Shown here: piece after piece, positions 22,050 to 64,000 of the stretch
Position numbering within the stretch: position 1 is the stretch's first letter
Layout: each line of letters begins with the position of its first letter
Translations under genes and position numbers: made by a program
Assembly: GCA_035559535.1 (NCBI GenBank)
Contig: DATMBG010000006.1
Span: 1-64,000 of the forward strand
DNA from: Candidatus Limnocylindrales bacterium
Lineage (GTDB): Bacteria > Moduliflexota > Moduliflexia > Moduliflexales > JAUQPW01
Direction: 5' to 3'
DNA: 64,000 bases
Notes under the pieces: generated by a model
What the model was told of the DNA's origin: nothing
Database searches by the model: none
The model's input: the letters and a program-made list of their open reading frames with translations, nothing else

Positions 22050-22050
22050 T

Positions 22051-22785: not shown

Positions 22786-22801
22786 TGCTAAAAATGAGCC
22801 A
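22786..22801 (-). promoter_or_regulatory. Candidate sigma-54 promoter (cysC-wecB)
   Basis: TGGCTCATTTTTAGCA, GG-N10-GC spacing. Confidence 0.35.
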
Positions 22802-23217: not shown

Positions 23218-23233
23218 TGGTGTAAACCTTGCA
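23218..23233 (+). promoter_or_regulatory. Candidate sigma-54 promoter (sulfated glycan operon)
   Basis: TGGTGTAAACCTTGCA, GG-N10-GC spacing, ~95 nt upstream of 23327. Confidence 0.5.
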
Positions 23234-23326
23234 CGATGTATAAAGGAGAAAATCTCCTATTAACCCGGCTCCTAAGATTTAAGAAATTAGGAACTTAGTG
23301 TATTTAGCTTAGAGGAAAAAAGAATC

Positions 23327-25027: not shown

Positions 25028-25100
25028 TCCTTCTCGTGCCTATAGCCTTTTTTAAAAGGTTAAACCACGAGAGTGCCTGGAATCCCTCGATAGAGAACTT

Positions 25101-25823: not shown

Positions 25824-26174
25824 GGCCTCTTCCTTTTAAATAAGCTTACCGGAGGCCCGATCTCCCAGAGGTTGGACCTCTTCTTTCACTCTTTCTCATA
25901 TCTCTTCACCGGGAAAGGGTTACCTGAAGAATCGAAGCGATCCCTTATACCTCAAGCTTTCATCCCCTTTCCATATGGAAACATCTCCTAAGGAGTAAGG
26001 GTAACCCCTGATAGTTACCCGGTTTCTTTGTCCAAACCAAAAATATATTTTAACAAAGCTTCGAAGAAAGTTATATCTAGCTTTAATAAAAAACCTAGCA
26101 TTATATTAAATAAGTTTGTCTGGACTTAGATTTTAATCTGGAAATGATGGGCGAAATGAAGGAGGCGAGAAAGA

Positions 26175-27146: not shown

Positions 27147-27258
27147 TCTTCGCCCGACTTTTGCAGATCCGGAGGAAACATGGGGTATTAAAGCTGCTTA
27201 ACAAGGTGGAAAAGGTTTTCCACTCTTTCCAGTAGTAAGTATTAGAGGATTTCAGTTT

Positions 27259-28161: not shown

Positions 28162-28178
28162 CTAAAAAATCGGAGCAG

Positions 28179-29618: not shown

Positions 29619-29685
29619 TGGCTTTTGTCTGTTATTCTTTACAGTAAACAAAGATAACAGACAATATAGACAACAAGAAAGTAAC

Positions 29686-31704: not shown

Positions 31705-31754
31705 CAATTATCAATTACCGGTTGTTAATTGTTTATTAAAACAATTGTTAACTT

Positions 31755-32999: not shown

Positions 33000-33076
33000 G
33001 TCTTAGGTCTGTGGTCCGTTGTGGGGAGTAACACAAATTACCTTATGTTTTACAACGGACCCCAGATGGCAGTCTT

Positions 33077-34522: not shown

Positions 34523-34580
34523 GAGGCTGATAGTAAAGTGTTTAAAGTTTCTTTTAGCTTTAGACACTTCAGGTATTTTT

Positions 34581-37500
34581 ATGGAAGAGCGTGGGGATAT
34601 AGAGAAAAAGGACGGAATGATAGAGGGATATGGAAGTGAGGGGACTCTCTCTGCATCTTCATCCTCGCGTTTCCAGGTCCCTATTTCGCTGACCTGTGCG
34701 CTCCTGGTTGCAGGATTTGGAGCCCTTTTGGGCTATTTTGTTTGGAATACTTACGCCAACCGTACACTCATTCATTCTTACCCCTTGAGCTGGGGAAATG
34801 CCCAGTGGATCGCGACTCAGACAGAAGCACCCCAGGGATATTTCCGCAAAAATCTTTACCTGCCGCGCAAAGTTAATCATGCCTGGATTAAAGTGGCCGC
34901 CCCGGATTCCTATACCCTTTTGGTCAATGGAATATCTGTAGGTAAAAAGACTTTTCATGCCATCAATGTTTCTGGGGTTTATGATATTACTCCCTATTTA
35001 CGTACCGGAAAGAATGTAATTGGGGTCTTGGTTCGATTATCCGTTTATCCCGGAACAGGTCGAACTTTAGTGGAGGGGGCTTATGTCGATGATGTGAATC
35101 AAGAAACTCGATTCATCTCAGATGGTACCTGGAAGGTTAAGATTGTTGAGGAAAGACAGGGAGAGGGAACTATTTTGTGGTCAAGTCCGTCGTTCGATGA
35201 TGGTAACTGGCCTTTTGCTAAAGTCCTGGGCCCTGCCAATATAGAAAGGGTTTACCCCCTCAACGTGGATTATGGAGCTACGGAGGATTCCGTCACGGCT
35301 ATCGAAATCCCCCCCACGCATCCTCAGCTTATTACAGAGGCTCCACACGGGGAGTGGATCTGGTATCCGGATCCAGAGGTACGAACAGCCTATTTCCAGA
35401 AAGTACTGGATTTATCCCACCGAATCCGGGAGGTTTGGATTCGTGTTGCGGCCAGCCAGCGCTATAATTTAGAAGTCAACGGTATTGAAATTGCGAGTAT
35501 TGATCAATCCCTTAATCCCACCATTCAATCCACCAGCACCACAAATATCGTTACATCGACCACTTCTATCGCTCCGGTAACGCCTACCCGTTCTACAAAT
35601 CGCATACCTGCTGGAGTTCCTCAGAATCCGGCTGAAGGAACCGGCTCCCCCGCTCCCTCTAAATCCGGTCAGCTATCGGGATCATTGGATATCTATAACA
35701 TTACTCCTTTTATCCATCCGGGCTCGAACAGGATAGGAGTGAGTGTTCACGGGGAGCGCTCCTCACAGGCCTTACTTGTAGATGGCCTCATGGTTCATCA
35801 AAATGGCGAGGTAGAATGGTTTAAATCCGATTCTTCCTGGAAAACCTTACCTGTAGAGGATCTGAGTCCGCAACACTCCCTGGAGACAGTCCCTTCAAAG
35901 TCCTTACTTAAAGATGCCCGAATCGTGGGGAAATATCCGGATCTGCCCTGGGGTCTTCTCAAGAAAAACGCAAAAATTATAACCCTACCGAGTAATCTTC
36001 AAACCATCGCCTGGCTACTCCTGCTGGCTTATATGTTGGCAGGTGCTCTGATCATGGTATTCTTCTGGATTCTCTCCGGCTATTTACGCTATCGGCTTAA
36101 TCCCGAAAGCATTCGGCAGAAAGCCGGGAGGAGTAAATTACCCGTTGGTTTAAATCAGGCCCTTAGTTTAGATACCCTCGCTCACGTTCCTCCTGCCCTT
36201 TTTCTGGGTATTTGCTACCTGCTCCAGTATGATGTACGCTTTGATTATTCTTTTCCCTTTCAACCCTGGATTATTGCCGTGGCTATCTTGCTTCTGATAG
36301 GATTCAAACTGGCTTTCATTTTGGAAGCTAAAAAGGTAATGCGAAATGGTATTTCACGCTACCTCCCTTCGGTTTCTCGCCTTCCTGTTGATACCCTCAC
36401 CTTAACTACTCTGGAGGAGAGTAAAAAATTTCAATTGGGGTGTTTGTTGGTTATTTTGATCTGTGGGACCTGGTTGCGAATTCATAATATAGATTTTGAA
36501 TCCATCAACGGAGATGAATGTGGAACCCTGCGGGATGCCCTATCCATTCTTGTCCGTGGGTATGCTTTCAGGACCTTGGGAATTTATGAGAAACCCCTGG
36601 TAACCTATGAACTGCTTCCTTATCCCATTTCCATTTCCTTCTTACTTTTCGGAGTTAGCGATTTTGCTTTGCGTCTCCCTTCAGCCCTATATGGAATTTT
36701 CAGTATTTTTCTGATCTTTTACGTGGGGAGTAAATTGTTCAATAAAAGAATAGGTCTACTCGCTTCCGCTATCTTCGCGTTCATTCCTCTTTCTATCCAT
36801 TGGGCACAAAACGATCGCTATCCACAACCTACCCATACCTTGGGTCTGATAGTTAGCTATCTCTTCTACCGGGCCATCAATGAAGAAAGAATAAGACCTC
36901 GATACATCTACCCTATTGCTGTTTTATATATCTGGATGTTCTTGACCTGGGAAGGAACCGGCTTTATGCTTGGAGCTCTTGCTTTGGGTCTGGTTCTGGT
37001 TAGATGGAAAGATTACAAATGGATAAAAGAGCCCCATCTTTGGGCGGCTCTCATAGGAATTGTAACGGTTGTTCTGGTCCAGGGATTCCGACGTAAGGTT
37101 TATACGGCAAAATACCTGGTAATTGGAGAAGGGCTCTTAAGTGGAGTAACTTTAGCACCTGTTTTTTTCGATCCTTTATACGATCCGTATTATTATGTGG
37201 ATAACTTTTTCCGGGCTGAGAATCATTCAATTATGACAGCCCTATCCCTCGTCGGATTACCCCTTTTTGTTATGAATCCGGGATTGCGCTTCTTTGCTAC
37301 TATTCTGATTACCGTCTGGTTTCTGTTCACCAACCTCTTTCCCTTGCCTACCAACCGATATCTTTATCATGTTCAACCGTATCTAATTATTCTGGCTGCG
37401 GCTACCTGTGTTTATTACGGAGATTATCTCATTTCCCTTGGCAAAGGGGTTATTTCTCAAACTAAAAGCTGGATCAATACGATGATCCTGGTTATTCCTC

Positions 37501-37985
37501 TTTTGGTTCTATTCCTTGCCACGAATCCTTTTATTTTACAATTGTACCGACTATCGAGTCTTCCTAATACCGGAGTCGTGGATACGCGCTACCGTACCTA
37601 TCAGTCGGATCAAAAGACCTCCAATCAGTATATAAGAGACCATTGGCAGGAAGGAGATTATGTGATAAGCGCAACTCCTGATGTGACAAAGTATTATGCC
37701 GGGCAATCCGATGCCTTTCTGGAAAGTTTTACTACCCTCATCGTAGTATATGCCGAGCAGGGAAAGGACTTCATATTGCAGGATAAATCTATCGGTGTAC
37801 CCTCTCTCATAGGACTACGAGATTTAAAAGACGCTGTAAACCAACATCAACGGGTCTGGATTGCGGCCGTCCCAAACAGTATGTTTAACAAGCTAAATAC
37901 GCCTGAAGTGTTAAACTATATTAACACAAATTTCAAGGTCGTATATGAATCCTACAACGCAAAGATTTACCTTTGGGAAAAATAA
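34581..37985 (+). CDS. Tandem galactose-binding-like domains fused to a GT-C (ArnT/PMT-like) glycosyltransferase
   Basis: YFRK...VNG...YDITPYLRTGKN pattern twice; then LRI.......GDE, ALRLPSA and a multi-TM region. Confidence 0.75.
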   Translation: MEERGDIEKKDGMIEGYGSEGTLSASSSSRFQVPISLTCALLVAGFGALLGYFVWNTYANRTLIHSYPLSWGNAQWIATQTEAPQGYFRKNLYLPRKVNHAWIKVAAPDSYTLLVNGISVGKKTFHAINVSGVYDITPYLRTGKNVIGVLVRLSVYPGTGRTLVEGAYVDDVNQETRFISDGTWKVKIVEERQGEGTILWSSPSFDDGNWPFAKVLGPANIERVYPLNVDYGATEDSVTAIEIPPTHPQLITEAPHGEWIWYPDPEVRTAYFQKVLDLSHRIREVWIRVAASQRYNLEVNGIEIASIDQSLNPTIQSTSTTNIVTSTTSIAPVTPTRSTNRIPAGVPQNPAEGTGSPAPSKSGQLSGSLDIYNITPFIHPGSNRIGVSVHGERSSQALLVDGLMVHQNGEVEWFKSDSSWKTLPVEDLSPQHSLETVPSKSLLKDARIVGKYPDLPWGLLKKNAKIITLPSNLQTIAWLLLLAYMLAGALIMVFFWILSGYLRYRLNPESIRQKAGRSKLPVGLNQALSLDTLAHVPPALFLGICYLLQYDVRFDYSFPFQPWIIAVAILLLIGFKLAFILEAKKVMRNGISRYLPSVSRLPVDTLTLTTLEESKKFQLGCLLVILICGTWLRIHNIDFESINGDECGTLRDALSILVRGYAFRTLGIYEKPLVTYELLPYPISISFLLFGVSDFALRLPSALYGIFSIFLIFYVGSKLFNKRIGLLASAIFAFIPLSIHWAQNDRYPQPTHTLGLIVSYLFYRAINEERIRPRYIYPIAVLYIWMFLTWEGTGFMLGALALGLVLVRWKDYKWIKEPHLWAALIGIVTVVLVQGFRRKVYTAKYLVIGEGLLSGVTLAPVFFDPLYDPYYYVDNFFRAENHSIMTALSLVGLPLFVMNPGLRFFATILITVWFLFTNLFPLPTNRYLYHVQPYLIILAAATCVYYGDYLISLGKGVISQTKSWINTMILVIPLLVLFLATNPFILQLYRLSSLPNTGVVDTRYRTYQSDQKTSNQYIRDHWQEGDYVISATPDVTKYYAGQSDAFLESFTTLIVVYAEQGKDFILQDKSIGVPSLIGLRDLKDAVNQHQRVWIAAVPNSMFNKLNTPEVLNYINTNFKVVYESYNAKIYLWEK

Positions 37986-38046
37986 CTCATTGTCCCTTGT
38001 CTAAGGACTCTAGGCAAGGGACAAAAAAAGACAAAGGATAAAGAAT

Positions 38047-38724
38047 ATGTTTTATAATCCCGCTTATTTTGATTTTGTAAAACTCCTTGAATCTAACTGG
38101 CTAAAGATCAGAGCAGAGGTTGAGCGGCTCCAGGGGGAGAATTTTAATCCCTGGTACGAGAAACACCTTTATAATAAGGACTGGACTGCCTTTGGTTTAT
38201 ACAATGGATATAAACAGGAGAGGGGGCAAAAGATAGAGGAAAACTGTGCCTTATGTCCGGAAACTACCAGGATTATTGAAGCTATTCCGGGTTTGATGAC
38301 GGCGGGTTTTTCGTGTCTGGCTCCGGGTACCTATATAAGACCCCATAAGGGTTATGAAGGAAATGTGCTGCGTTGTCACCTTGGCTTGATTGTTCCAGAA
38401 GGGTGTGGCATAACCGTTCAGGGAAAAACTAAAACCTGGACGGAGGGAAAATGCATTGTATTTGATGATACTTTTGTTCATGAGGCCTGGAATTTTGGAA
38501 AGAGTAAAAGAATTGTATTGCTGATGGATATTAAAAAAGATAAGGATGTCCTGGGAATAGATCTTTCTGATGAAAAGTATATAGAACCTTTCACATGGGG
38601 TGAAATTCTTAGAAGAGAGTTTCAGTATACCCGGCTTTTCTACTATAAAGTAACGACTAAGTTAGCTAAGATGAAGCAGGCCTTGAAGGGTTCTGGTGAA
38701 AAGCCATACAAATCCGCTGCCTGA
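38047..38724 (+). CDS. Aspartyl/asparaginyl beta-hydroxylase family (LpxO-like) Fe/2OG oxygenase
   Basis: CPET, PH.G...LRCHLGL and FDDTFVHEAWN motifs. Confidence 0.9.
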   Translation: MFYNPAYFDFVKLLESNWLKIRAEVERLQGENFNPWYEKHLYNKDWTAFGLYNGYKQERGQKIEENCALCPETTRIIEAIPGLMTAGFSCLAPGTYIRPHKGYEGNVLRCHLGLIVPEGCGITVQGKTKTWTEGKCIVFDDTFVHEAWNFGKSKRIVLLMDIKKDKDVLGIDLSDEKYIEPFTWGEILRREFQYTRLFYYKVTTKLAKMKQALKGSGEKPYKSAA

Positions 38725-50801: not shown

Positions 50802-51773
50802 TTAATCGGTTATTCCGGGAATTACCTGCATTACAGGAACTCCATTCTCAAAACCTTCCTTCTCCATGCGTGCCCAATGGGTCCAATAATCGGGATGCTG
50901 GGAAATATAATGCTCTAAATGCCGGATATATTCCTGAACAGCTCCTTTTAAGATTTCTTCCTCCTCTCCCTCGACCTGAATCGGTTCTTTAAAGACGAAA
51001 TATTGCGTAAAGTCTTTTTGCAAAATCACAAAACCAGGAACTATCCCTGCGCCGCTTTTTGCAGCCATGAGGACAGGTCCCAGAGGAACTTTTAGTTTTA
51101 CATTAAAAAAGTCTACCAGAGTAAATCTTTTCCCAAGTGCCCCATCTCCCGTTGCATCGATAATTTGATTCTGCTTTAAGCACTCATACTGAATTCTAAC
51201 TAAAGACAACAGAGATTTCAAGGAGGTAATAACTTGATAATTTCCCCGTGTTTTCCAGATGGAACTTTTAATACCCAGGACCTTTTGTGAAACCCAGGGG
51301 CTGGTATCCTTGAGATGGGTGGGCAATACCAGTAAAGGAGTTATTTTATAACCTCGATAAGCTAAATAGGCTGAAACCAGATTAACAGGACCAAAATGAA
51401 AGGTGACGACTACTAAACCTTTACCTCGAGATAAAACTTCGTCTATATAATTCAGACCTTCTACCTTACAGGCCCGGAAATACTTCCCATAATCTTTTCT
51501 TCCCATAATAAAAAGATCCATGAGGATCCTGTGTTTAGTAGCATAAAAACGTTTTAAAATAGTTTTCTTTTCTTGAAGGTTAAACTTATCGCCAAAAATG
51601 AGATTTAAGTTAGTAAGAATTTGATGTTTTTGTTTAGGGGAAGCGAAGAGATATTGGATATTTCCCAATAAAGTAGCCAGCTTATAGCTAATCCGAAAGG
51701 GTAAAGTCTGGATTAGCCAACGATAGGGAAAATAAACCAGCAAAAGCAGGAGGTTTTTGAAATACAGCTTCAT
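50802..51773 (-). CDS. LpxL/HtrB-like acyltransferase (paralog 2)
   Basis: Same motifs as its paralogs. Start MKLYFK at 51773, by alignment with the paralogs. Confidence 0.82.
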   Translation of the reverse strand: MKLYFKNLLLLLVYFPYRWLIQTLPFRISYKLATLLGNIQYLFASPKQKHQILTNLNLIFGDKFNLQEKKTILKRFYATKHRILMDLFIMGRKDYGKYFRACKVEGLNYIDEVLSRGKGLVVVTFHFGPVNLVSAYLAYRGYKITPLLVLPTHLKDTSPWVSQKVLGIKSSIWKTRGNYQVITSLKSLLSLVRIQYECLKQNQIIDATGDGALGKRFTLVDFFNVKLKVPLGPVLMAAKSGAGIVPGFVILQKDFTQYFVFKEPIQVEGEEEEILKGAVQEYIRHLEHYISQHPDYWTHWARMEKEGFENGVPVMQVIPGITD

Positions 51774-51892
51774 GTTAATGATCCGGAGCGCCCTTGAACC
51801 CGGTACCCGGTTTTGTGAAATCGTATATGCACCTGTATAACAGAGGTTACGGCTTAAGACCTTAACACAGGCACAGCATGCTGTGTCCCTGC

Positions 51893-52026
51893 TACTTTGT
51901 AAAGTTAATGCTGTGTAACGCTCTGCCCTCACCCCAGGCCCCTCTCCTACGCTGCGGAGAGGGGTGAGAAGATCTCTGGGTTAGCTTCTGGTGAACCCCT
52001 TCTTCCGAAGCTTCGGGAGAGGGGTG
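51893..52026. mobile_element. MITE/REP-like element (CCCTCACCCC family)
   Basis: tactttgtaaagttaa...ccctcaccccaggcccctctcc..ggagagggg. Confidence 0.6.
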
Positions 52027-52439: not shown

Positions 52440-52802
52440 TTATCGTGGAACACATAAACAAACGAAGTTTTTCTGGGCATACTCTTTCCCGTTAAAAGGC
52501 ACCAGGCAATTAAAGGTATCAGTTACATTCTTACCGGGAACATAACCTGAAGAATATTGTCTTCTCCCCCTCTTTGCTGATGTGGGTACACCGCAGACAA
52601 ATAGCTGAGCCGTTGCACCTGACTTACTTCCTTCAGCTCCCGCATAAACCGGAGCCTGACCGGCTCTGGTACAGGTCGTATCGCAATTGGTTCCAGGAGG
52701 TGCAGCTAACCAACTATAGTTGGCAGCCCAAACCAGATCTTCTACTAAAGAAATTCCTGTCAGTAAAACAGCTAAAGAGGCAATTAAAATTTTCGTTTTC
52801 AT
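52440..52802 (-). CDS. Secreted six-cysteine mini-protein (paralog 2)
   Basis: GGAGG RBS, signal peptide, CDTTC...VC...C...CLCVPR. Confidence 0.85.
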   Translation of the reverse strand: MKTKILIASLAVLLTGISLVEDLVWAANYSWLAAPPGTNCDTTCTRAGQAPVYAGAEGSKSGATAQLFVCGVPTSAKRGRRQYSSGYVPGKNVTDTFNCLVPFNGKEYAQKNFVCLCVPR

Positions 52803-52991
52803 AGCTAACCTCCCTTTTTAGAGAAAAATTATAAAAACTGCCCACCTTCGATCCCTTTATAAGAAGACGCACAAATAACTTTAAGGTTTCTAGGCTGATA
52901 AAGAAATGTCTCCTGGGCTTACTTCTCATTAACCTCCCTTGTAGGAAAAAATTTCTTTCCCTACAAGGGATTTCCTCCTTAGAAGGATAAA

Positions 52992-53348
52992 TTATCGAGG
53001 AACACACAAGCAAACAAAGCTTTGTATGACGTTTTCTTTTCCATTAAAAGGTACATTGCAGGTCGTTGTTGCCACTACATTCTTACCGGGGACAAATCCG
53101 GAGGAATATTGTTGTCTCTGTCTCTGATATATTTTAACATCCACGCCACAGACGTAAAGTTGCGTAGCTGCACCTGATTTGCTCCCCTCGGTTCCAGAAT
53201 ACACCGCGACCTGACCGGCTCTTCCGCAAGTGGTATCACAGTTGGTTCCCTGGGCAGGTATCCAGGTGTAATTGGCGGCTAAAGTACTCTGGGAGAATAA
53301 AAAAATTCCTACCACCAGCAAAGAGGGTACTAAAACTTTGGTTTTCAT
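52992..53348 (-). CDS. Secreted six-cysteine mini-protein (paralog 1)
   Basis: AGGAGG RBS, signal peptide, same Cys pattern. Confidence 0.85.
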   Translation of the reverse strand: MKTKVLVPSLLVVGIFLFSQSTLAANYTWIPAQGTNCDTTCGRAGQVAVYSGTEGSKSGAATQLYVCGVDVKIYQRQRQQYSSGFVPGKNVVATTTCNVPFNGKENVIQSFVCLCVPR

Positions 53349-55621: not shown

Positions 55622-57424
55622 TTATCTCCGTTTGCCAGGTTCCAGCCAGCAGCGTTCCCGCTGCCAGGGATAAGAGGGCAGTCCGACGCACTGCCCGTCG
55701 GTTGGATAGAGCCAGCTCCAGTCGATGGAATACCCCAAGGTATAGAGGGCACCCAGAGACCGAAGCATGGTCATTCGGTCTTCTTTTCCATCGAGAGGGG
55801 ATCGATCCATGATTCCTTTCTGGTCATTAGAGTTTGAAGTCTTTCGGCCTGAAGAGATATTCGGGTGAACTTCTCCCCGAAGAAAAATCTCCAGACACCG
55901 GATGAGTTCCTCCCGCGAGCGAAATACCAGGGCCAGGCGGTAGTCGTGATGACTTCGCCGTACACTGGCCGTATAACACAGATCTCGTAACGAAACGGCA
56001 GAGCCAGTATTTCCAACTCCTAAAAAGCTCTGATATGCCTGTACAAGAGCCTGAAGAGCTTTCTGGCTGTGTGCGGATAACGGAAGCAGGTACGGTGGAT
56101 CCAAAGGGAGGTCTTTCTCCTGTTTATAGGCTTCTGGAACTCCTGGAGTTCCCTCTAAAACGGCATGGGCGTTGGTTCCCCCGAAGCCAAAGGAACTCAC
56201 TCCGGCGAGAGTTGGACCGGATTCCTGGGGCCAGGGGCCCAGAGTTTGTTGAACTAGCAGTAGGAGCTCCTCAAAAGGGATATGTGGATTAGGTTTGTGG
56301 AAATGTAAGCTCGGGGGGAGCTCGCGGTGTCTAAGGGCCAATACGGTTTTAACCAGACCGGCGATACCTGCTGCGGTTTCCAGATGTCCAATATTGGTCT
56401 TGACTGAACCTATAGCACAATAGTGTCCGGGAGGACGGTCTATTGCAAGGACAGTCCCCAGTGCCTGGGCTTCAATGGGATCCCCCAAGAGGGTTCCTGT
56501 ACCATGGGCTTCAATATACTGAACCTGACCCGGTGAAACTTCGGCCTGCCGGTAAGCTTCTCGCAACACCTCTTCCTGAGCCCACCGGTTAGGAGCCGTG
56601 AGTCCGTTGGTGCGTCCGTTATTATTGATAGCACTTCCCCGAATAACAGCATAAATCGGATCATGATCGGTCAGGGCGTTTGACAGGGGTTTTAAGACCA
56701 CCATACCGGCCCCTTCACCACGAACATAGCCATTTGCCCCTGCATCAAAAGCCTTGCAACGACCCTCGGGAGATAGAGCCCTTGCTTTACTGAAGCCAAT
56801 GGTAAGTTCTGGTGATAGGATGACGTTTACCCCCCCGGCCAGGGCAAGGGAAGATTCATGGGTCCAGAGACTTTGGCAGGCAAGATGGACGGCAACCAGG
56901 GAGGAGGAGCAGGCCGTATCTATGGAAATACTGGGTCCTCTAAAATCAAAGAGATAAGAAATACGATTCGATGCAATGGATAATAAGTTACCGGTATTCG
57001 TGTAAGCATTGATGAAATCAGGATTGCTTAATTGCATCCGACCGTAATCTCCGGGTCCAATTCCAATAAATACCCCCGTTCGGGTACCTGCCAGCCGATC
57101 TACCACCTGTCCGGCATCTTCGAGGGCTTCCCAGGCTACCTCCAACAAGAGTCGTTGTTGGGGATCCATTCGAGCAGCTTCCCATGAGAGGATCTTGAAA
57201 AAGTGATAATCAAATTGATCTATCTGCTCCAGAAAGCCCCCCCAACGCGTGTTCATTTTGCCCGGTGCTTTAAGATCGGGGTGGTAAAAGGCTTGCAAAT
57301 CCCAACGATCCGCCGGAACTTCTGTGACGGCATCTACTCCGTCCCGGAGAAGCCGCCAGAAAGCCTCTAGATTTCCGGCACCCGGGAAACGACAAGCCAT
57401 ACCGATAACCGCGATAGGTTCCAT
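55622..57424 (-). CDS. Stand-alone type I PKS ketosynthase without AT domain
   Basis: EPIAVIGMACRFPG, DPQQR, DTACSSS, EAHGTGT and NIGHLE motifs; KS-AT linker joined almost directly to the post-AT LPSYPWQRERCW. Confidence 0.92.
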   Translation of the reverse strand: MEPIAVIGMACRFPGAGNLEAFWRLLRDGVDAVTEVPADRWDLQAFYHPDLKAPGKMNTRWGGFLEQIDQFDYHFFKILSWEAARMDPQQRLLLEVAWEALEDAGQVVDRLAGTRTGVFIGIGPGDYGRMQLSNPDFINAYTNTGNLLSIASNRISYLFDFRGPSISIDTACSSSLVAVHLACQSLWTHESSLALAGGVNVILSPELTIGFSKARALSPEGRCKAFDAGANGYVRGEGAGMVVLKPLSNALTDHDPIYAVIRGSAINNNGRTNGLTAPNRWAQEEVLREAYRQAEVSPGQVQYIEAHGTGTLLGDPIEAQALGTVLAIDRPPGHYCAIGSVKTNIGHLETAAGIAGLVKTVLALRHRELPPSLHFHKPNPHIPFEELLLLVQQTLGPWPQESGPTLAGVSSFGFGGTNAHAVLEGTPGVPEAYKQEKDLPLDPPYLLPLSAHSQKALQALVQAYQSFLGVGNTGSAVSLRDLCYTASVRRSHHDYRLALVFRSREELIRCLEIFLRGEVHPNISSGRKTSNSNDQKGIMDRSPLDGKEDRMTMLRSLGALYTLGYSIDWSWLYPTDGQCVGLPSYPWQRERCWLEPGKRR

Positions 57425-57451
57425 TTTCTCCCGTCCTCTATAGCTTTTCCA

Positions 57452-57757
57452 TTAAGTACGGGCGATCTGCTGGTCGCTCCTACCGTTCCAGGATTGTTCC
57501 AGGATCAGATTAATCAGGTCTTCAACGGTACTAACTTTTGTAAAATCCACCGAATCCAGCCGGATAGAAAATGCTTTTTCTATAACAATAATCATCTCTA
57601 CCGTATCCAGGGATTTGATACCCAGATCTTCTTGCAAGCGGGTATCCAAAGTAAGGAATTCAATATCTTCGGGATTCAAGATATCCCTTAAAAGGGTCCG
57701 AAGATTTTCAAAAACCTCTTCCTTGGATAAGGTTTGATTTTGTTTTACAGATGACAT
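57452..57757 (-). CDS. Acyl carrier protein
   Basis: DLGIKSLDTVE...E..F.I (Ppant Ser in KSL). Confidence 0.82.
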   Translation of the reverse strand: MSSVKQNQTLSKEEVFENLRTLLRDILNPEDIEFLTLDTRLQEDLGIKSLDTVEMIIVIEKAFSIRLDSVDFTKVSTVEDLINLILEQSWNGRSDQQIART

Positions 57758-57775
57758 GTAGCCCCTTCCTTTCTA

Positions 57776-58756
57776 TTAAGTTTCAAAAGGTTTTCGTGTA
57801 ACCAGCCGTATCAAAGGTATACCACCCTCAAACCCTTCTATCTCCATCCGATTCCAATAACCCCAATGGGCCGGATATCGGGAAACATAATGTTCCAGAC
57901 GTTGAATGTATCTCTGAACGGCCATCTTCAAGGTTTCTTCCTCTTCATTAGCTACTTGAATCGGTTCTTCAAAGATAATATGGTGCGCATTATCTTTTCG
58001 TCGGATTACAAAGTTCGGAACCAGGGCTGCTCCGGTTTTTGCGGATAAAAGAGCAGGTCCAAGGGGAACTTTCAGTTTTACATTGAAAAAATCGACCAAG
58101 ATAAATCTTTCCCCCAGAGCTCCATCTCCGGCTGCACTGACAATATAGTTCTGTCTTAGATGCTGATATTGGGCTACAACCATGTAGGTAAGAGATTTCA
58201 GGGAAGAAAAAATCTGAAAATTCCCGCGTTCTTTCCAAATAGAATGCTTGATATTTAGAACTTGTTGGGAGAGCCAGGGATTAACTCCTTCGATAGGAGA
58301 CTGCAGGACCAGAAAACCGACGATTTTTTTATAGCCCTTATAAAGGGCAAAAGGTGGAATCAGGTGAGCAAAACCAAAGTGGAAGTTGAGTCCGATCATT
58401 CCCTTTCCTTGGGATAAAACCTGATCCACATAATCCAGACCTTCTATACTGCAAATCTGAAGATAATTTTTGTAATCTTTTCTTCCCAGGATAAAAAGAT
58501 CCACAATCTTTTTCTGTTTCTCAACGTAGAAGTCCCGCAGGATGGTTTTTTTCTCCCGAGTATCGAGTTTATTACCGAAAACTAAATCAAGATAGGAAAA
58601 GAACCGATGTTTTTGATGGGAGGAAAGAACTTTGTATTGGATATTTCCAAACAGAGTAGCTATTGAACAGCTTATTTGAAAAGGTAAAGCCTGAACGAGC
58701 CAGCGGTAAGGGAAACAGACCAATAACAGAAAAAAGTCTTTAAAATATTGTTTCAT
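57776..58756 (-). CDS. LpxL/HtrB-like acyltransferase (paralog 1)
   Basis: GKG.I...FH, GP..LSAKTGA and LE..VSRYP.HW patterns. Confidence 0.82.
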   Translation of the reverse strand: MKQYFKDFFLLLVCFPYRWLVQALPFQISCSIATLFGNIQYKVLSSHQKHRFFSYLDLVFGNKLDTREKKTILRDFYVEKQKKIVDLFILGRKDYKNYLQICSIEGLDYVDQVLSQGKGMIGLNFHFGFAHLIPPFALYKGYKKIVGFLVLQSPIEGVNPWLSQQVLNIKHSIWKERGNFQIFSSLKSLTYMVVAQYQHLRQNYIVSAAGDGALGERFILVDFFNVKLKVPLGPALLSAKTGAALVPNFVIRRKDNAHHIIFEEPIQVANEEEETLKMAVQRYIQRLEHYVSRYPAHWGYWNRMEIEGFEGGIPLIRLVTRKPFET

Positions 58757-58815
58757 TTTTCTTTCTGTTTATCGTCTCTAACCAACCTTTTCTATAAAAA
58801 AGGTCTCGTTTTGGA

Positions 58816-60210
58816 TTAAGGTACAGGTGTTATGTTGGATTTAAAATCGGTTAACTTGAGATTTAACGAAGGTTTTCTTTTTTCCAGGATTATCCGCATA
58901 CCATATTTAGGTCGTAGCGTCACACTTAACATAATCTGGACAGGATGGTTTGGGACGAGCCGCATCCGCCACCTCTGGGCCAGTGTCGCGATCAAAAGGA
59001 TTCCTTCCATCCAGGCAAAAGACTCGCCGATACACTGTCGGGGACCGGCTCCGAAAGGAAAATAGGCACATCTGGGCAACCTGATTTCTGGTCTGGGAAG
59101 CCACCGCTCGGGATCAAATTTAAAAGGATCGGGAAAATATCGAGAATCATGGTGGGTTACATAGGGACAGATCATAATAACCGAGTCAGCAGGCAAGAGA
59201 TAGTTTTCAATTCTGTAATCCTCAAGAACTCTGCGGCATATCCTCCAGGTTGGCGGATAAAGGCGCATGGCCTCCATAAACACCATCCGGGTATAGGGTA
59301 ACTGTTCCACATCGCTGGCTGTGGGAGGTCTATCTGCCAGAACGGTATCGATTTCAGCGTGAAGTTTTGCCTCCACATCGGGATATTGCGACAATAAATA
59401 CCAGGTCCATGTCAGGGCAAGGGCTGTGGTTTCATGACCTGTTATAAAAAGGGTCATGATCTCGTCACGTATTTGCCGATCCGTCATGCCACTTCCGTCT
59501 CCCTCCACGTCCTGAGCTTGCAATAGCATAGAAAGCACATCACCTGGATCTACGCCGCTGATCCGACGTTCATTAATCATTTTATGGACAAAGGTATTTA
59601 CTTGATTCAAGGCTTTCTGACGGCGATGGACACTGGGCAGTGAAAGTTTCTCTAACAATCTATAAAAGGGTCCTGGAGTGAGGCCCCACTTTATGAACAG
59701 GTTGAAGGTCTCACTGATCTCCCCCGTTTCTGATTCAAGATCCCTATCAAAGAGTGTTTTCCCGACAATTCTTAAAGTCAGGTGGGTCATTTCCTCTAAT
59801 ATATCCAGATTCATACCTTCTTGCCATCGTTGCTGCATTTCCAGGCTGTATTTTGTCATTACCTCTGCATAAGTCAAGATACGCTGTCGATGAAAGGCCG
59901 GTTGTATAAGCCGTCGTTGGCGAAGGTGGAAATCACCCCTGCTATAGAGCAATCCTGTTCCCATCACCTGTCGGGCAGGTGGGGTTTGTCCTTTTTTTTC
60001 GAAATTTCGGTTATGTCTTACCAGTACGTCTTCGAGATGATCCGGGTGATTCAGTAAGAAAAAATTCCTGGGGCCAAGCCTGAAATGGACGATATCGCCA
60101 TAGTTGCGGATAGCTTTCATTAAAAAGCCAATCGGATCACGCCGATAAGAAAAAAGATGACCGATGAACGGTAGACCCACTGGACCAGGAGGATATCGGA
60201 TTATCGTCAT
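58816..60210 (-). CDS. Cytochrome P450
   Basis: TGHETT, EAMRLYPP, PERW and FGAGPRQCIG motifs. Confidence 0.96.
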   Translation of the reverse strand: MTIIRYPPGPVGLPFIGHLFSYRRDPIGFLMKAIRNYGDIVHFRLGPRNFFLLNHPDHLEDVLVRHNRNFEKKGQTPPARQVMGTGLLYSRGDFHLRQRRLIQPAFHRQRILTYAEVMTKYSLEMQQRWQEGMNLDILEEMTHLTLRIVGKTLFDRDLESETGEISETFNLFIKWGLTPGPFYRLLEKLSLPSVHRRQKALNQVNTFVHKMINERRISGVDPGDVLSMLLQAQDVEGDGSGMTDRQIRDEIMTLFITGHETTALALTWTWYLLSQYPDVEAKLHAEIDTVLADRPPTASDVEQLPYTRMVFMEAMRLYPPTWRICRRVLEDYRIENYLLPADSVIMICPYVTHHDSRYFPDPFKFDPERWLPRPEIRLPRCAYFPFGAGPRQCIGESFAWMEGILLIATLAQRWRMRLVPNHPVQIMLSVTLRPKYGMRIILEKRKPSLNLKLTDFKSNITPVP

Positions 60211-60234
60211 GTAAATCTCCTTTAGAGGTAGATC

Positions 60235-60561
60235 CTAGGCTTTTCCAACTAAATATCGAGCAAGGACCTCAATGTTAGGATAATCATACACAAGGGTGGG
60301 AGGAAGTCGACATCCCAACCAGTCTTGTAACTCACCGGAGAGAATTGCGGCTTGCCTGGAATCCAGGCCATAATAAGCAAAAGGTTGTTGCACCTCAATA
60401 TCTTGAGGATCAACTTCTGTCAATTCAGAAAGCTTAGAGATTAACCAGGTTCGAATGGCTTCCTCATTTTGAGGTTGTTTTGGAGGATCTATCTGGTTGT
60501 TGGAGCCCTTTCCATGAGAAAAACCGGATGATTTACTATCTTTCGGATTTAGAATTCCCAT
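60235..60561 (-). CDS. Acyl carrier protein (FAAL/PKS-type)
   Basis: PF..YGLDS....L...L..WLG..L.PTL.YDYP.I..LA pattern. Confidence 0.92.
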   Translation of the reverse strand: MGILNPKDSKSSGFSHGKGSNNQIDPPKQPQNEEAIRTWLISKLSELTEVDPQDIEVQQPFAYYGLDSRQAAILSGELQDWLGCRLPPTLVYDYPNIEVLARYLVGKA

Positions 60562-60579
60562 TTTTTTCTTCCCTCCTGT

Positions 60580-60607
60580 GTACGGGCGTACGGCCGTACG
60601 CCCCTAC
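60580..60607. repeat. GTAG-type REP-like palindrome
   Basis: gtacgggcgtacggccgtacgcccctac. Confidence 0.7.
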
Positions 60608-60621
60608 TAGAAGGGGTAGCC

Positions 60622-61629
60622 TTAATAGCCCGTCTTAGCCTCCGCTATCATACGCGATGTGGGGATTTTAACATCCCAGGCAAGACCCACCATTTCAAAG
60701 ATGCGAATGATCCAGGCGCTTAAGTCGGGTTCCCACCATCTTAATCCATGTTTTGCTGAACTGGGGAAAGCGTGATGATTGTTTTGCAATCCTTCCCCAA
60801 ACGCGATGAGAGCGACCCAAAAATTATTCGCACTGTAATCATGGGTATTGAAAGGACGACTGCCAAAGGTATGGCCTATTGAACCAACAGCCCAACAGGC
60901 CTGGTTTACCAGGAAAATTCGAACGAGCCCTCCCCACAGAAATCCCTGGGAGATCCCGGTCCAAGTCCCCGTTAGAATCCCTCCTAAAACAGCCGGGATA
61001 ACTAAACCCAGGGATACCCAAACAAAATAGAGTTGATTTATCCTAAAGAGGGTAGGATCCCGAAGAAGATCCGGTGCGTAATAGAGGGAGTTGGCGATTT
61101 TATCGGAGAACATCCAACCTATATGGGCATGCCACAATCCCCGAACTAAGTTCCATATTCCTTTTCCCTGGAGATGGGGTGAGTGGGGGTCACCTGGCTG
61201 GTCACTGTAAGCATGATGGCGGCGATGGGAAGCTACCCAGAAGAGGATAGGGCCTTGAGCAGCCATAGAACCGAGGATGGCCAGGATGATCCGTAAGACT
61301 CTACCAGCTTGAAAGGCACGATGCGCAAAATAGCGGTGGAAGCCGACCGTAACACCTATCATGATGGCCGTATACATGCTGACGAGGATTCCCGCCTCTA
61401 CACGATCAATTCCATATTTCCAGGCTAAAATCATGGCTACAACAAACCCTAGAAAAGGTATGACTATCACCGCCAGCGCGATACTTCGTTGAAGTCTTCG
61501 GGCAAAAGGGCTTATGACTATGACTCCTGGAATCTTAGGTAAATTCGTAGAAGTTTTAAACGGGGGTCGGAAATTACTTTCACCTGATGAGGTAGTGGGT
61601 TTACTATTTTCTGAATTCTGGATTTCCAT
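60622..61629 (-). CDS. Membrane-bound fatty acyl desaturase/acetylenase-like protein 2
   Basis: HRYFAH, HRRHH and QNNHH boxes; QGP motif. Start at 61629 (GGAGG RBS) or 61656. Confidence 0.92.
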   Translation of the reverse strand: MEIQNSENSKPTTSSGESNFRPPFKTSTNLPKIPGVIVISPFARRLQRSIALAVIVIPFLGFVVAMILAWKYGIDRVEAGILVSMYTAIMIGVTVGFHRYFAHRAFQAGRVLRIILAILGSMAAQGPILFWVASHRRHHAYSDQPGDPHSPHLQGKGIWNLVRGLWHAHIGWMFSDKIANSLYYAPDLLRDPTLFRINQLYFVWVSLGLVIPAVLGGILTGTWTGISQGFLWGGLVRIFLVNQACWAVGSIGHTFGSRPFNTHDYSANNFWVALIAFGEGLQNNHHAFPSSAKHGLRWWEPDLSAWIIRIFEMVGLAWDVKIPTSRMIAEAKTGY

Positions 61630-61668
61630 TTTTCCTCCCTTCTCGATAGGATCCATTCTGGGTTTGAT

Positions 61669-62643
61669 CTAACGACTCTTTCTGGACTCTACGAGCATAC
61701 GCGCTGTGGGGACTTTGACATCCCAGGCTAAACCTATTCTCTCAAGGATACGGATAACACAACCATTCCAGTCAATCTGCCACCACTTTAACCCATGTCT
61801 GGCTGAGCCTGGGAAAGCATGGTGGTTATTGTGCCAACCTTCACCGAAGGCAAGAAGGGCAATCAAGAAATTGTTTCTACTTTCATCACGACTATGGAAG
61901 GGACGGGTACCACAAACATGGGTAATGGAGTTAACACTCCAGGTGGTATGGTGAACCAAAAAGGTCCGTATGAGTCCTCCCCATAAAAATCCCTGGAGGG
62001 CTCCTATCCAGGTCCCTGTCAGAATTCCACCCAGAAGAGTGGGAATAAGGAGGCCCAGGAACACCCAAACAAAATAAAGCCGATTAACTTTAAAGAGAAG
62101 AGTATCTCGAAGTAAATCGGGTATATAATGGCTCCAATCGGTAACTTCGTGGACAAATAGCCATCCGGTATGGGCATGCCATAGCCCACGGAGCAAACCG
62201 GAAATTCCATCCCCATGGAGATGAGGTGAATGAGGATCGCCTGATTGATCGCTGTAAGCGTGATGGCGCCGATGAATAGCTGCCCAAAAAAGGACAGGCC
62301 CTTGAGCAGCCATGGAACCGAGGATGGCAAGAATAACCCGTACTACCCGGTTGGTTTTGAAAGCACGATGGGAAAAATGCCGATGGAACCCCACTCCAAT
62401 TCCAATTATGGTGGCCGCGTACATACCGATGAGAAGACCTAACTCCACAAGACCCAGAGCATATCCCCAGAATAGAATAGTGGCAGCAAGGAACCCGAGA
62501 AAGGGCGTAATGACAACCACCAGGGCAATAGTTCGTTCGAACTTTTGGGCAGGTAAACTGGCCATTGCTATCCCAGGAAACTCAGATGGCTTTGAAGGGG
62601 TTTTAAATTTTGCCTGGCTTCCTAATTTAGTGACCTCTGACAT
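61669..62643 (-). CDS. Membrane-bound fatty acyl desaturase/acetylenase-like protein 1
   Basis: HRHFSH, HRRHH and HNNHH boxes; QGP motif; AGGAGG RBS. Confidence 0.93.
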   Translation of the reverse strand: MSEVTKLGSQAKFKTPSKPSEFPGIAMASLPAQKFERTIALVVVITPFLGFLAATILFWGYALGLVELGLLIGMYAATIIGIGVGFHRHFSHRAFKTNRVVRVILAILGSMAAQGPVLFWAAIHRRHHAYSDQSGDPHSPHLHGDGISGLLRGLWHAHTGWLFVHEVTDWSHYIPDLLRDTLLFKVNRLYFVWVFLGLLIPTLLGGILTGTWIGALQGFLWGGLIRTFLVHHTTWSVNSITHVCGTRPFHSRDESRNNFLIALLAFGEGWHNNHHAFPGSARHGLKWWQIDWNGCVIRILERIGLAWDVKVPTARMLVESRKSR

Positions 62644-62881
62644 GACTGGCCTCCTTTAGGTTTTCTTATTAAAAGGATTTTAATTGCAAAAATCACACTC
62701 TATCTAACCGATGGTCCACTTACTGCCTAAGGTATTGAGAGATTTTGATAGAAAAGATTTGTTTCAGGCAGTGTCCTATTAAACAGGAAAGTAACGAAAC
62801 ACCATACTTACTTAATCCCGTAGAGTAAGTCAACTGGAAAAATACGGAATAATTAAATTAGTTGGTATGAGGTTACTTAGA

Positions 62882-62897
62882 TGCAAAGAGTGAACCA
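62882..62897 (-). promoter_or_regulatory. Candidate sigma-54 promoter (desaturase operon)
   Basis: TGGTTCACTCTTTGCA, GG-N10-GC spacing. Confidence 0.5.
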
Positions 62898-63174
62898 TTT
62901 ATTTTAAGGGATAAAAGAAGGCTTATAGCTTATACCCATCCCTATTTCATGGGGTAATTATACGATCCTGGGAATTATAGGACTCCAGTAGGGGTAAATG
63001 TCAAACCGGCTCCTATTTATAGAAAACTTCTTGATACTACCTGTGGAAAGGAATTTTAAAAAGTTGAGATTTCAGTGGCATTCCTTGAGCTTCTAAACAG
63101 TAACCTTCGGTTTCCTGAAGACTGGAAAAAACTTTTCGCAGAAGCTATTTTTACAGGAATTTTATGGCTCTACT

Positions 63175-63250
63175 CCCTCACCCCCGGCCCCTTTCCTGAA
63201 GCCTGGGGAGAGGGGTATAAATAATTGTTCAAATTTAACTTTACAGAGTA
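63175..63250. mobile_element. MITE/REP-like element (CCCTCACCCC family)
   Basis: ccctcacccccggcccctttcc..ggagagggg...aaatttaactttacagagta. Confidence 0.6.
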
Positions 63251-63281
63251 TGAGTTATCCCCTTCAATTCAGATACAGACT

Positions 63282-64000
63282 TTACTCTTCCAGCACGTTT
63301 AGGCTTCCAGATAGAAATCCGGCCCGGCAGGCATAATGCTGGATTTTGCCACTGGAGGTTTTAGGAATGCTATTTGCTTTAAGTAGCAATACAGCATGAA
63401 TGTGCATTTCGTGATTTTCTACTACCGCCTGTCGAATGCTCCCAACTATTTCCTTGATGCTCCAACGTCTTAAATCATAGGAATGCTCCAGTTCGGCTAC
63501 AATAACGAGTCGTTCTTCACCATTCTGATCTATGGAAAATGCTGCACAGCAGCCCGGGCGTAAAGCCGGATGGCTCTGTTCCACGGTCTGTTCGATATCT
63601 TGAGGATAATAATTACGACCCCCTAGGATGATCAAATTCTTCAGACGACCCGTGACGAACAGCTCCCCCTTCTTCAAGAATCCTAAATCTCCTGTACGAA
63701 GAAAGGGGCCCTCACCGGTATCTGCCAGATAAGCCTTGAAGGTCTGCTTTGTCTCTTCGGAGCGATTCCAGTAGCCTTGAGCAACGCTGGGTCCTGATAC
63801 CCAAATCTCTCCCACCCGGTCAGGTGAACATAGGGTTAAGGATTCTGGATCGACAATAATAATCTTCTGACCCGGTAAAGATCGACCACACCCTATGAGT
63901 TTTTGGGTATCCTTTGTAGAACTATCGAGAGGGGATGCTTCTACTACCTGGTTCTGTTTTAGAGCAGTTCTCAGAACGCTGAGAACCGTGGGAAGGGTTC
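63282..64000 (-). CDS. Fatty acyl-AMP ligase (C-terminal part; 5' end outside the window)
   Basis: Frame open to the window end: ...VLRTALKQNQVVEASP...LIGCGR (FAAL-type insertion region), GEIWVSGPSVAQGYW, FLRTGDLGF, GRNYYPQDIE, IPKTSSGKIQ. Confidence 0.9.
   Translation of the reverse strand, partial: TLPTVLSVLRTALKQNQVVEASPLDSSTKDTQKLIGCGRSLPGQKIIIVDPESLTLCSPDRVGEIWVSGPSVAQGYWNRSEETKQTFKAYLADTGEGPFLRTGDLGFLKKGELFVTGRLKNLIILGGRNYYPQDIEQTVEQSHPALRPGCCAAFSIDQNGEERLVIVAELEHSYDLRRWSIKEIVGSIRQAVVENHEMHIHAVLLLKANSIPKTSSGKIQHYACRAGFLSGSLNVLEE

Follow-up and report, generated by a model that had tools for sequence, protein, structure and literature searches.

A two-desaturase cassette followed by an LpxL-family acyltransferase in an envelope-glycoconjugate locus of an uncultured bacterium

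We analysed a 64,000-nucleotide stretch of DNA (the window: positions 1-64000 of contig DATMBG010000006.1, C6 in our numbering, assembly GCA_035559535.1) from an uncultured, metagenome-assembled Candidatus Limnocylindrales genome that GTDB places in the phylum Moduliflexota. The genome is 95.8% complete, with 4.1% contamination. At its end the window carries eight genes, which encode one fatty acyl-AMP ligase (FAAL), two membrane desaturases (Des1 and Des2), an acyl carrier protein (ACP1), a cytochrome P450, an acyltransferase of the LpxL family (Lpx1), a second carrier (ACP2) and a stand-alone ketosynthase (KS) of the polyketide synthase (PKS) type without an acyltransferase (AT) domain. Both desaturases group with enzymes linked to a FAAL and an ACP, including relatives of the alkyne desaturase JamB and of the polyyne (pgn) desaturases. 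Judging from homology, the cassette would produce an acyl chain that is desaturated, possibly acetylenic, as well as hydroxylated and lengthened by C2, and this chain would end up on a glycolipid or polysaccharide anchor of the envelope, a reading for which we consider the chances evenly balanced.

Cassettes of a FAAL, a desaturase and an ACP are, to our knowledge, the sole known bacterial route to fatty alkynes and polyynes, and the outlets known to us are PKS or nonribosomal peptide synthetase (NRPS) assembly lines or a thioesterase. They are valued for antifungals, toxins and bio-orthogonal tags. Should the chain instead pass via a lone KS and a further ACP to an LpxL-family enzyme within a glycoconjugate locus, this would be a third outlet.

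Gene order at the locus

A preliminary description of this DNA had listed eight co-oriented genes, and all of them are present there on the minus strand. They are given below from the FAAL gene onward, in window coordinates unless stated otherwise, together with the adjoining receptor gene.

C6:63282-65108 (63282-64000 in the window), minus strand: FAAL, fatty acyl-AMP ligase, 608 amino acids; the window holds the last 238 codons (3' part)
62644-63281: intergenic gap between FAAL and Des1, 638 bp
61669-62643, minus strand: Des1, membrane desaturase of the SCD type, 324 amino acids; PF00487 82 bits
60622-61656, minus strand: Des2, membrane desaturase of the SCD type, PgnF/CayC type, 344 amino acids; PF00487 81.6 bits
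60235-60561, minus strand: ACP1, JamC/PgnG-like carrier; PP-binding 55.8 bits, GLDSR serine present
58816-60210, minus strand: cytochrome P450, 464 amino acids; PF00067 312.8 bits, haem loop FGAGPRQCIG
57776-58756, minus strand: Lpx1, LpxL/LPLAT-family acyltransferase, 326 amino acids; PF03279 63.7 bits (cut-off 22.3)
57452-57757, minus strand: ACP2, AcpP-like carrier, 101 amino acids; PP-binding 36.3 bits, KSLD serine present
55622-57424, minus strand: KS, stand-alone type I PKS ketosynthase, 600 amino acids; ketoacyl-synt 333 bits, Ketoacyl-synt_C 150 bits
53500-55611, minus strand: TonB-dependent receptor, 703 amino acids; Plug and beta-barrel domains

FAAL, Des1, Des2 and ACP1 follow one another within 5 kb, which is the co-location of FAAL, desaturase and ACP used as a criterion in PMC8406139. 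The gaps from Des1 through KS measure 12, 60, 24, 59, 18 and 27 bp in order and the receptor gene begins 10 bp past KS, so that between Des1 and the receptor every gap falls within 10-60 bp. The acyltransferase, the second ACP and the AT-less KS do come after the cassette, as first described, and they are closely spaced. The 638-bp gap probably marks the start of a transcription unit that runs from Des1 to the receptor; it holds no open reading frame (ORF) with a recognizable family and no Rfam match, and Rfam returned no match over 44-64 kb. Promoter-like and terminator-like sites are not commoner than in shuffled sequence, and it is therefore the spacing by itself that argues for an operon, as it does for the receptor being part of the system. 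A TonB-dependent receptor beside a biosynthetic operon is an odd pairing; the receptor occupies the same site in a sister species.

In that sister species (G001) the locus is found in the same order on two contigs, with 83-98% protein identity over 20 genes (PDE767 to PhoD/FG-GAP) and 94% identity of the receptor, which argues that the neighborhood is not a matter of chance. The gap between FAAL and Des1 is 84% identical between the two species, save for a 70-bp insertion in the genome studied here. The insertion (window 63150-63220), absent from G001, holds one copy of a G-rich 10-base motif, which has further copies at 44846 and 51926 and 130 occurrences genome-wide where about 5 would be expected, and which looks like a small dispersed repeat element.

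Desaturases and their relatives in other genomes

Three histidine boxes are present in both desaturases; they are intact in Des1 (HRHFSH, HRRHH and WHNNHH), and the third box of Des2 is LQNNHH. We placed the two enzymes in a maximum-likelihood tree (IQ-TREE) of 70 rows, in which desaturases were labelled by genomic context: cassette, where FAAL and ACP tblastn matches lie within 6 kb of the desaturase gene, or solo, where neither does. The rows comprise 10 cassette and 2 partial-context desaturases, 36 solo desaturases (every second one of 71, the other 35 being dropped), Des1 and Des2, 10 database proteins of unknown context, and 10 more distant sequences, among them the further desaturases, of housekeeping type, that the Pleurocapsa, Angelobacter and Pseudomonas genomes encode. 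Cyanobacterial homologs (including Moorena) of unverified function stand in for authentic JamB, TtuB, CayB and CayC; none of the 120 matches listed for a cyanobacterial cassette desaturase bears the name JamB. The N-terminal half of the pgn-type desaturase-thioesterase, with a branch length of 10, was excluded, which fits the published view of this enzyme as delta-12-like and not related to jamB (PMC9828172).

One clade (ultrafast bootstrap/SH-aLRT 97/89) unites the 10 cassette desaturases with 12 proteins of unknown context, Des1 and Des2 among them. A separate clade of 36 rows (100/94) is made up of 35 of the 36 solo desaturases and one of the two partial-context ones, and the housekeeping-type desaturases of cassette-bearing genomes fall into the outgroup. 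Forcing Des1, Des2 and their close homolog P0002 into the solo clade costs 51.65 units of log-likelihood (p = 0.0109 in the approximately unbiased (AU) test), a test weakened by the group having been named after the tree was seen. By this sequence evidence Des1 and Des2 are members of the FAAL/ACP-linked (JamB/Pgn-related) desaturases and not of the stand-alone ones. Their position away from the ordinary delta-9 enzymes, together with a FAAL-Des-Des-ACP order identical to that of a pgn-type locus of Pseudomonas danubii (L036), bears out the kinship to JamABC and to the polyyne cassettes that the preliminary description had claimed.

In the tree, Des2 and the second desaturase of L036 are sisters (100/98). 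Both enzymes have the LQNNHH third iron box in place of the WHN.HH of other desaturases, and this box is rare: it occurs in 2 of 105 locus and tree sequences and in 5 of 237 database matches. One of those five database proteins, P0014, shares a metagenome contig with the Des1 relative P0002. HXXHH and QXXHH boxes are mentioned for cay/pgn desaturases in PMC9828172. Tree and motif mark Des2 as being of the same orthologue type as the pgn-type cluster's second desaturase. Des1 shares a group (95/83) with P0002 and a Gemmataceae protein and is not sister to the first pgn-type desaturase in this tree.

Locus L036 also served to compare our locus with the cay (Trinickia caryophylli) and pgn (Pseudomonas protegens) systems, since its gene series of FAAL, two desaturases, ACP and a fusion of desaturase and alpha/beta hydrolase has the architecture published for pgn (PMC8406139). 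The thiotemplated logic on a dedicated PKS-like ACP is common to these systems and ours. According to PMC8406139, polyyne clusters comprise seven conserved genes (FAAL, ACP, three desaturases, thioesterase and rubredoxin), and in ten actinobacterial genomes a P450 replaces thioesterase and rubredoxin. Unlike cay and pgn, our locus lacks the third, delta-12-like and thioesterase-fused desaturase, a thioesterase and a rubredoxin, it has an LpxL-family acyltransferase, a second ACP and a KS at the position of release, and its host belongs to another phylum. The 36 kb read upstream past the window end contain no desaturase-thioesterase or rubredoxin gene. A scan of the ORFs between 44.9 kb in the window and 82 kb in the contig yielded no thioesterase or hydrolase family, the remaining genome not having been searched for one. 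PF00487 matches only Des1 and Des2 genome-wide and hence no third, delta-12-like desaturase, and the rubredoxin family PF00301 has no match in the genome (7 of 14 control genomes had one). The reported absence of desaturase-thioesterase and rubredoxin from the window therefore extends beyond it, and the concern that a desaturase-thioesterase might lie just past its end has fallen away, as FAAL is preceded there by an HlyD-type adaptor gene and others.

These absences make the locus a two-desaturase relative of polyyne systems and not a canonical polyyne cluster. The label "polyyne-like" does not hold in its strict sense, since the desaturase triad called indispensable in the literature (PMC9828172) is incomplete. 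According to the same source, polyyne could not be detected with any incomplete desaturase set, pgnDEFG among them, and a point mutation abolishes polyyne production whichever desaturase carries it. A diyne, microcarbonin, has been tied to a two-desaturase cluster as a published hypothesis (PMC6836626), which we do not use as evidence here.

Triple-bond formation by Des1 and Des2 is unproven from their sequences; few residues separate acetylenases from desaturases, and homology cannot distinguish them (PMC8341276). The same pathway may accordingly run without an alkyne. Des1 and Des2 would then be plain regiospecific desaturases that introduce one or two cis double bonds into the ACP-bound chain, and the product would be an envelope glycolipid or lipid A-like molecule with a mono- or di-unsaturated, hydroxylated acyl chain. 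This would be a specialised form of the dedicated-ACP/LpxXL logic discussed below, and possibly the organism's sole route to unsaturated acyl chains. We regard this as an appreciable, if lesser, possibility. It is in keeping with the need of polyynes for the complete triad (PMC9828172), with the inseparability of the two enzyme classes by homology (PMC8341276), with the 45-58% identity of Des1 to stand-alone desaturases, and with a genome that holds no other PF00487 desaturase while sister-family genomes have a different, outgroup-type one. It does not readily account for the placement of both enzymes in the clade of JamB-related and Pgn types (tree and AU test), nor for the rare active-site box common to Des2 and a polyyne desaturase; furthermore, ordinary membrane desaturation needs no dedicated FAAL or PKS-type ACP. 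We put the probability that the acyl chain is acetylenic near one in three. The more specific proposal that two desaturases alone form a conjugated enyne or diyne, which is then hydroxylated, C2-extended and esterified by the LpxL-family paralog to a glycolipid or polysaccharide anchor, seems to us rather unlikely.

In order to find related desaturase loci we scanned one genome per species; at least 600 stretches matched, 594 were confirmed and the best 80 were kept. By tblastn with all proteins of our locus, FAAL, desaturase and ACP occur together in 8 of these best 80 loci, namely in two of Ca. Angelobacter (Acidobacteriota), four of cyanobacteria, and one each of Pseudomonas danubii and Nocardia thailandica. 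One cyanobacterial locus, from Pleurocapsa (L023), has two desaturases as ours does, although the outlet differs here. Our FAAL shares 59-61% identity with its counterparts in the cyanobacterial cassettes and 48-49% with those of Ca. Angelobacter, and ACP1 is 37-50% identical to the ACPs of other cassettes. Among 400 genomes of the class of the Pseudomonas locus we found no further pgn-type cluster: of six matches at E<=1e-60, one is the query genome itself and the other five are 38-42% identical. A Des1 homolog is present in 2 of 301 genomes of the Ca. Angelobacter family.

Within the host phylum, sampled by nine species-level genomes, the Des1 type is found in two (this genome and G001), other matches being at most 41% identical, and the P450 and the Lpx2 type are likewise found in two of nine, both congeners. 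Confinement to one genus within the phylum, with the nearest cassette relatives in other phyla, indicates by sequence comparison that the cassette was horizontally acquired. Outside Proteobacteria, PMC8406139 reports alkyne cassettes from Cyanobacteria, Planctomycetes and Ca. Entotheonella, and it finds polyyne-clade clusters in Actinobacteria as well. A Bacteroidota origin was considered and dropped, with 0 type IX secretion system tail domains found, a weak argument given that the control matched in no genome. Two of seven sister-family genomes carry an outgroup-type desaturase, which this genome and G001 lack.

Two of the other cassettes have settings of their own. The Nocardia thailandica locus (L040, 8184-16347) encodes a 575-amino-acid protein without a family, a desaturase, an ACP, a 735-amino-acid protein with a C-terminal P450 domain, a FAAL and an alpha/beta hydrolase, and may be one of the P450-containing polyyne-clade variants of PMC8406139. 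In Ca. Angelobacter (L015/L021) a fused class-III aminotransferase is followed by FAAL-desaturase-ACP and then by a short-chain dehydrogenase and a PAP2 phosphatase, another cassette context without PKS or thioesterase.

Ketosynthase, acyltransferase and the proposed pathway

The FAAL combines an AMP-binding domain (Pfam, 220.5 bits) with a DIP2-like C-terminal domain; its best NCBIfam models are FadD32 (432 bits) and fatty-acid--AMP ligase (428 bits), both below their curated cut-offs, and CoA-ligase models score lower. The best NCBIfam matches of ACP1 are the Pks13 N-terminal ACP and PKS ACPs, and ACP2 matches acyl carrier protein models at 43-50 bits, below cut-off. For the P450 the nearest solved structures are 7wzl and 3dbg and the nearest NCBIfam models are terpenoid oxygenases, below cut-off. 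Its only counterpart among the best 80 loci, in the Nocardia thailandica cassette, is 23% identical and unrelated. The genome has a P450 paralog of 59% identity on contig C20 (L116:6154-7494; 446 amino acids), which is also present in G001 and suggests that the cluster P450 was recruited by local duplication and was not brought along with the cassette. An apparent in-frame TGA in this paralog proved to lie outside its ORF, which is intact.

The KS carries an intact Cys-His-His set (TACSSS, EAHGTGT and NIGH) and a CurL-like/RhiE-like KS-AT linker. It has no Acyl_transf_1 domain; the AT would be supplied in trans. Residues 2-595 match solved trans-AT KS-linker didomains as well as CurL, and identity to PKS KS domains that adjoin cyanobacterial cassettes is 50-61%. 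On these sequence grounds it has the architecture of an elongating ketosynthase of a type I or trans-AT PKS. The JamABC and TtuABC cassettes likewise combine a FAAL and a dedicated ACP with a membrane desaturase from this clade, and a type I KS comes after them. In contrast to those systems, our locus has two desaturases and not one, the KS stands alone without AT, ACP or processing domains, and no NRPS or further PKS module, let alone an assembly line, was found at the locus.

The combination of an AT-less KS with desaturases of this kind probably occurs elsewhere too. Homologs of the AT-less KS (593-612 amino acids, 56-60% identical over their full length) lie on contigs whose sizes match those of contigs with Des1 homologs; from their equal sizes of 17104, 85924 and 11000 bases we take these to be shared contigs in three other assemblies. 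In a Pyrinomonadaceae record the desaturase (HEX8475584.1) and the AT-less KS (HEX8475587.1) have two genes between them.

Lpx1 has two paralogs in the window, and the three proteins are mutually 53-56% identical:

50802-51932, minus strand: Lpx2, Lpx1 paralog; PF03279 73.7 bits
49779-50774, minus strand: Lpx3, Lpx1 paralog; PF03279 65.8 bits

An ordinary LpxL-like gene on contig C32 scores 214 bits with PF03279, against about 63-72 bits for the three paralogs, and the best NCBIfam equivalog of Lpx1 reaches 61.9 bits against a cut-off of 248. The predicted structure of Lpx1 (Atlas model) matches Lip_A_acyltrans clusters with a TM-score of 0.84. We also aligned a profile of these three proteins and four metagenome homologs with Acinetobacter LpxM (5kn7) and obtained a full-length match (E 0.0012); the catalytic histidine is conserved (H126) and the invariant aspartate D211 aligns with the PDH aspartate of LpxM. 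The acid of the HX4D/E motif is missing, the +5 position being H, N and N in Lpx1, Lpx2 and Lpx3. Of the earlier term "lipid-A-type", membership in PF03279 and the fold stand; the term is otherwise a family label, given the low equivalog scores and the missing acid.

A metagenome scan with Lpx1 gave four loci with homologs of 59-62% identity; for Lpx2 and Lpx3 the range is 57-62%. None has FAAL-type, desaturase, ACP, P450 or KS neighbours, the sole exception being a 31%-identical AMP-binding gene at one edge. Three of the four contain Wzx, phosphodiesterase-family, outer-membrane efflux, sulfotransferase, YdjM, TPR and PMT_2 proteins; two of these three also have a GH42-like gene, and one of the two adds GT4 and DegT. 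The fourth encodes a DM9-like protein, two Lpx proteins, an ABC importer-like set, a FemAB-like acyltransferase, a GH42-like protein and a PhoD/FG-GAP protein. The same gene families fill the window and the next 18 kb of our genome. Since the loci of the Lpx homologs and the surroundings of the cassette share these families, we assign the Lpx subfamily to a polysaccharide/glycolipid system, of which one paralog sits inside the cassette operon in this genus. These loci and the glycoconjugate-rich window make the sugar or lipid acceptor of the preliminary description likely. In metagenome locus L098 a 44% homolog of the tandem DM9-like proteins described below precedes an Lpx gene.

Two known systems offer parallels. 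The acpXL-fabZXL-fabF1XL-fabF2XL-lpxXL cluster puts an (omega-1)-hydroxy very-long-chain fatty acid on lipid A (PMC5613085). The likeness, one of logic only, is that a dedicated ACP, a ketosynthase and an LpxL-family enzyme are clustered for a special hydroxylated chain on an envelope glycolipid. Unlike that cluster, our operon has no FabZ and no FabF-type KS, its KS being of PKS type; the hydroxyl would come from the P450, entry is through a FAAL, desaturation is included, and Lpx1 falls far below the equivalog cut-offs of LpxL/LpxXL type. The second system is VexE of the Vi-antigen locus, an LpxM/PatA-like enzyme that needs a beta-hydroxyacyl-ACP donor, acylates UDP-GlcNAc at C-6 and likewise lacks the acid of the HX4D/E motif (PMC9597891). 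In both cases an LPLAT/LpxM-like enzyme is encoded in a polysaccharide locus with a GT4 gene, and the motif acid is replaced while the histidine and a distal aspartate are kept. VexE differs from Lpx1 by its long TPR domain and by drawing on housekeeping acyl-ACP, and the likeness is confined to logic and motif. The VexE donor, a 3-hydroxyacyl-ACP, is the form that a KS step followed by reduction would give. By analogy, VexE and acpXL/lpxXL make such wiring chemically reasonable. Our literature searches found no JamB/Pgn-type cassette coupled to an LpxL-family acyltransferase, although they did not cover the supplementary genome lists of PMC8406139.

We propose the following pathway. FAAL would adenylate a free fatty acid and load it onto ACP1, where Des1 and the PgnF-type Des2 may dehydrogenate the bound chain to a diene, enyne or diyne and the P450 may hydroxylate it. 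The AT-less KS would take the chain off ACP1 and condense it with malonyl-ACP2, malonyl being loaded in trans by the housekeeping malonyl transferase; this step would add C2 and shift the chain to the AcpP-like carrier as a 3-oxoacyl thioester. A housekeeping reductase could then give the 3-hydroxyacyl thioester, the form favoured by LPLAT sugar acyltransferases such as VexE, and Lpx1 would move the chain to a sugar hydroxyl of a glycolipid, a lipid-A-like molecule or a polysaccharide lipid anchor made by neighbouring genes. With no thioesterase, no free acid would be released. The overall interpretation given in the preliminary description is thereby kept in part: a JamB/Pgn-related cassette without a thioesterase and with an acyltransferase outlet to a sugar or lipid is retained, while the polyyne triad is incomplete and "lipid-A-type" denotes a fold family only.

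Several observations weigh against this proposal. Polyynes need all three desaturases (PMC9828172), so a two-desaturase set may stop at alkenes, and as Des1 and Des2 are the sole PF00487 desaturases of the genome they may also serve ordinary lipid unsaturation. The operon encodes no ketoreductase, malonyl transferase or electron donor, for which housekeeping enzymes would be needed; 638 bp stand between FAAL and the remaining genes; the acceptor is guessed from the neighborhood; and conservation is documented in one sister species. None of the best 80 desaturase loci has the Lpx1/ACP2/KS wiring or even an Lpx1 homolog, which leaves comparative support for the coupling thin, the co-occurrence of KS and desaturase being the only hint.

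The last point raises the question of whether two unrelated systems simply abut, a JamABC-like cassette with its P450 on one side and an envelope set of Lpx1, ACP2 and KS that acts on ordinary fatty acids on the other. That Lpx1 paralogs and homologs work without a cassette, that ACP2 is AcpP-like and ACP1 PKS-like, and that a single sister species backs the coupling would agree with such an arrangement. We nevertheless consider it highly improbable: from Des1 to KS the genes share one strand with gaps of 12-60 bp, without Lpx1 or KS the cassette would have no nearby enzyme for release or hand-over, a KS of this type also comes after the cyanobacterial cassettes (50-61% identity to the adjoining PKS KS domains), and homologs of AT-less KS and desaturase co-occur on three other contigs, once with accessions three apart.

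It is also conceivable that the product is a diffusible metabolite. In a nocuolin-type reaction the KS would join acyl-ACP1 with acyl- or malonyl-ACP2, Lpx1 would off-load the product to a small acceptor, the HlyD-type protein would export it and the TonB-dependent receptor would re-import it. NocH/NocG show that one FAAL and a KS can join two acyl-ACPs (PMC10088813), and known relatives of the cassette produce toxins and antifungals (PMC8406139). The position of the HlyD/DevB-like adaptor gene directly upstream of FAAL, and of the receptor gene 10 bp past KS, would suit such a cycle. However, the KS is of the elongating type I PKS type, for which head-to-head condensation is not the shown activity, no thioesterase, NRPS or further PKS module was found at the locus, and the two Lpx1 paralogs in the locus have their homologs in cassette-free polysaccharide/glycolipid loci. 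We therefore judge this explanation improbable.

If the proposed transfer to an envelope anchor is correct and the chain is acetylenic, the product would be the first known bacterial envelope glycoconjugate bearing an acetylenic acyl chain, and it would suggest that some bacteria put reactive or unusually unsaturated lipids into their envelope. Hand-over by a KS to an AcpP-like carrier and an LPLAT would be a new release logic for JamB/Pgn-type cassettes, in a phylum without reported cassettes. A natural two-desaturase set with one PgnF-type enzyme would let one ask which part of the triad chemistry two enzymes can manage, and the locus supplies a divergent LPLAT subfamily with three paralogs. 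Should the desaturases be ordinary, the locus would still be a compact case, on a par with acpXL/lpxXL, of a dedicated carrier bringing a tailored acyl chain to the envelope.

Surrounding DNA

The cassette sits within a large envelope-glycoconjugate locus (about 80 kb around it). Upstream of FAAL there follow, in order, genes for an HlyD/RND-adaptor-type protein, a membrane protein without a family, two phosphodiesterase-family proteins and YdjM, and then for a GT4 glycosyltransferase, an NAD epimerase/dehydratase, a DegT aminotransferase, another phosphodiesterase-family protein and a PfkB kinase. Downstream of the receptor are two DM9-like proteins, Lpx2, Lpx3, a GH42-like protein and a PhoD/FG-GAP/ASPIC protein. 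Two of these neighbouring features are as follows.

C6:65160-67490, 51 bp upstream of FAAL: HlyD/RND-adaptor protein, 776 amino acids, about double the usual size
52440-53348: two tandem paralogous DM9-like proteins of about 120 amino acids each; faint DM9-repeat match (E about 5e-4)

The adaptor protein has a weak match to DevB, the adaptor of a glycolipid exporter, and no ABC or RND partner is encoded adjacent to it. The protein upstream of it (305 amino acids) is an uncharacterised membrane protein that matched no family.

The remaining window consists mostly of glycoconjugate genes, for glycosyltransferases, an ABC-2 permease, a UDP-GlcNAc 2-epimerase, an APS kinase and a sulfotransferase; other genes encode a Wzx-type flippase, a GDP-mannose dehydratase, a sulfatase-family protein, a FabF-like KS, a PMT_2 (ArnT-like) protein and an LpxO-like Asp/Asn hydroxylase. 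Positions 20692-38724 probably constitute a sulfated-glycoconjugate locus, within which lie the stand-alone FabF-like KS (31755-32999), the PMT_2/ArnT-like protein of 1134 amino acids and the LpxO-like Asp/Asn beta-hydroxylase (38047-38724).

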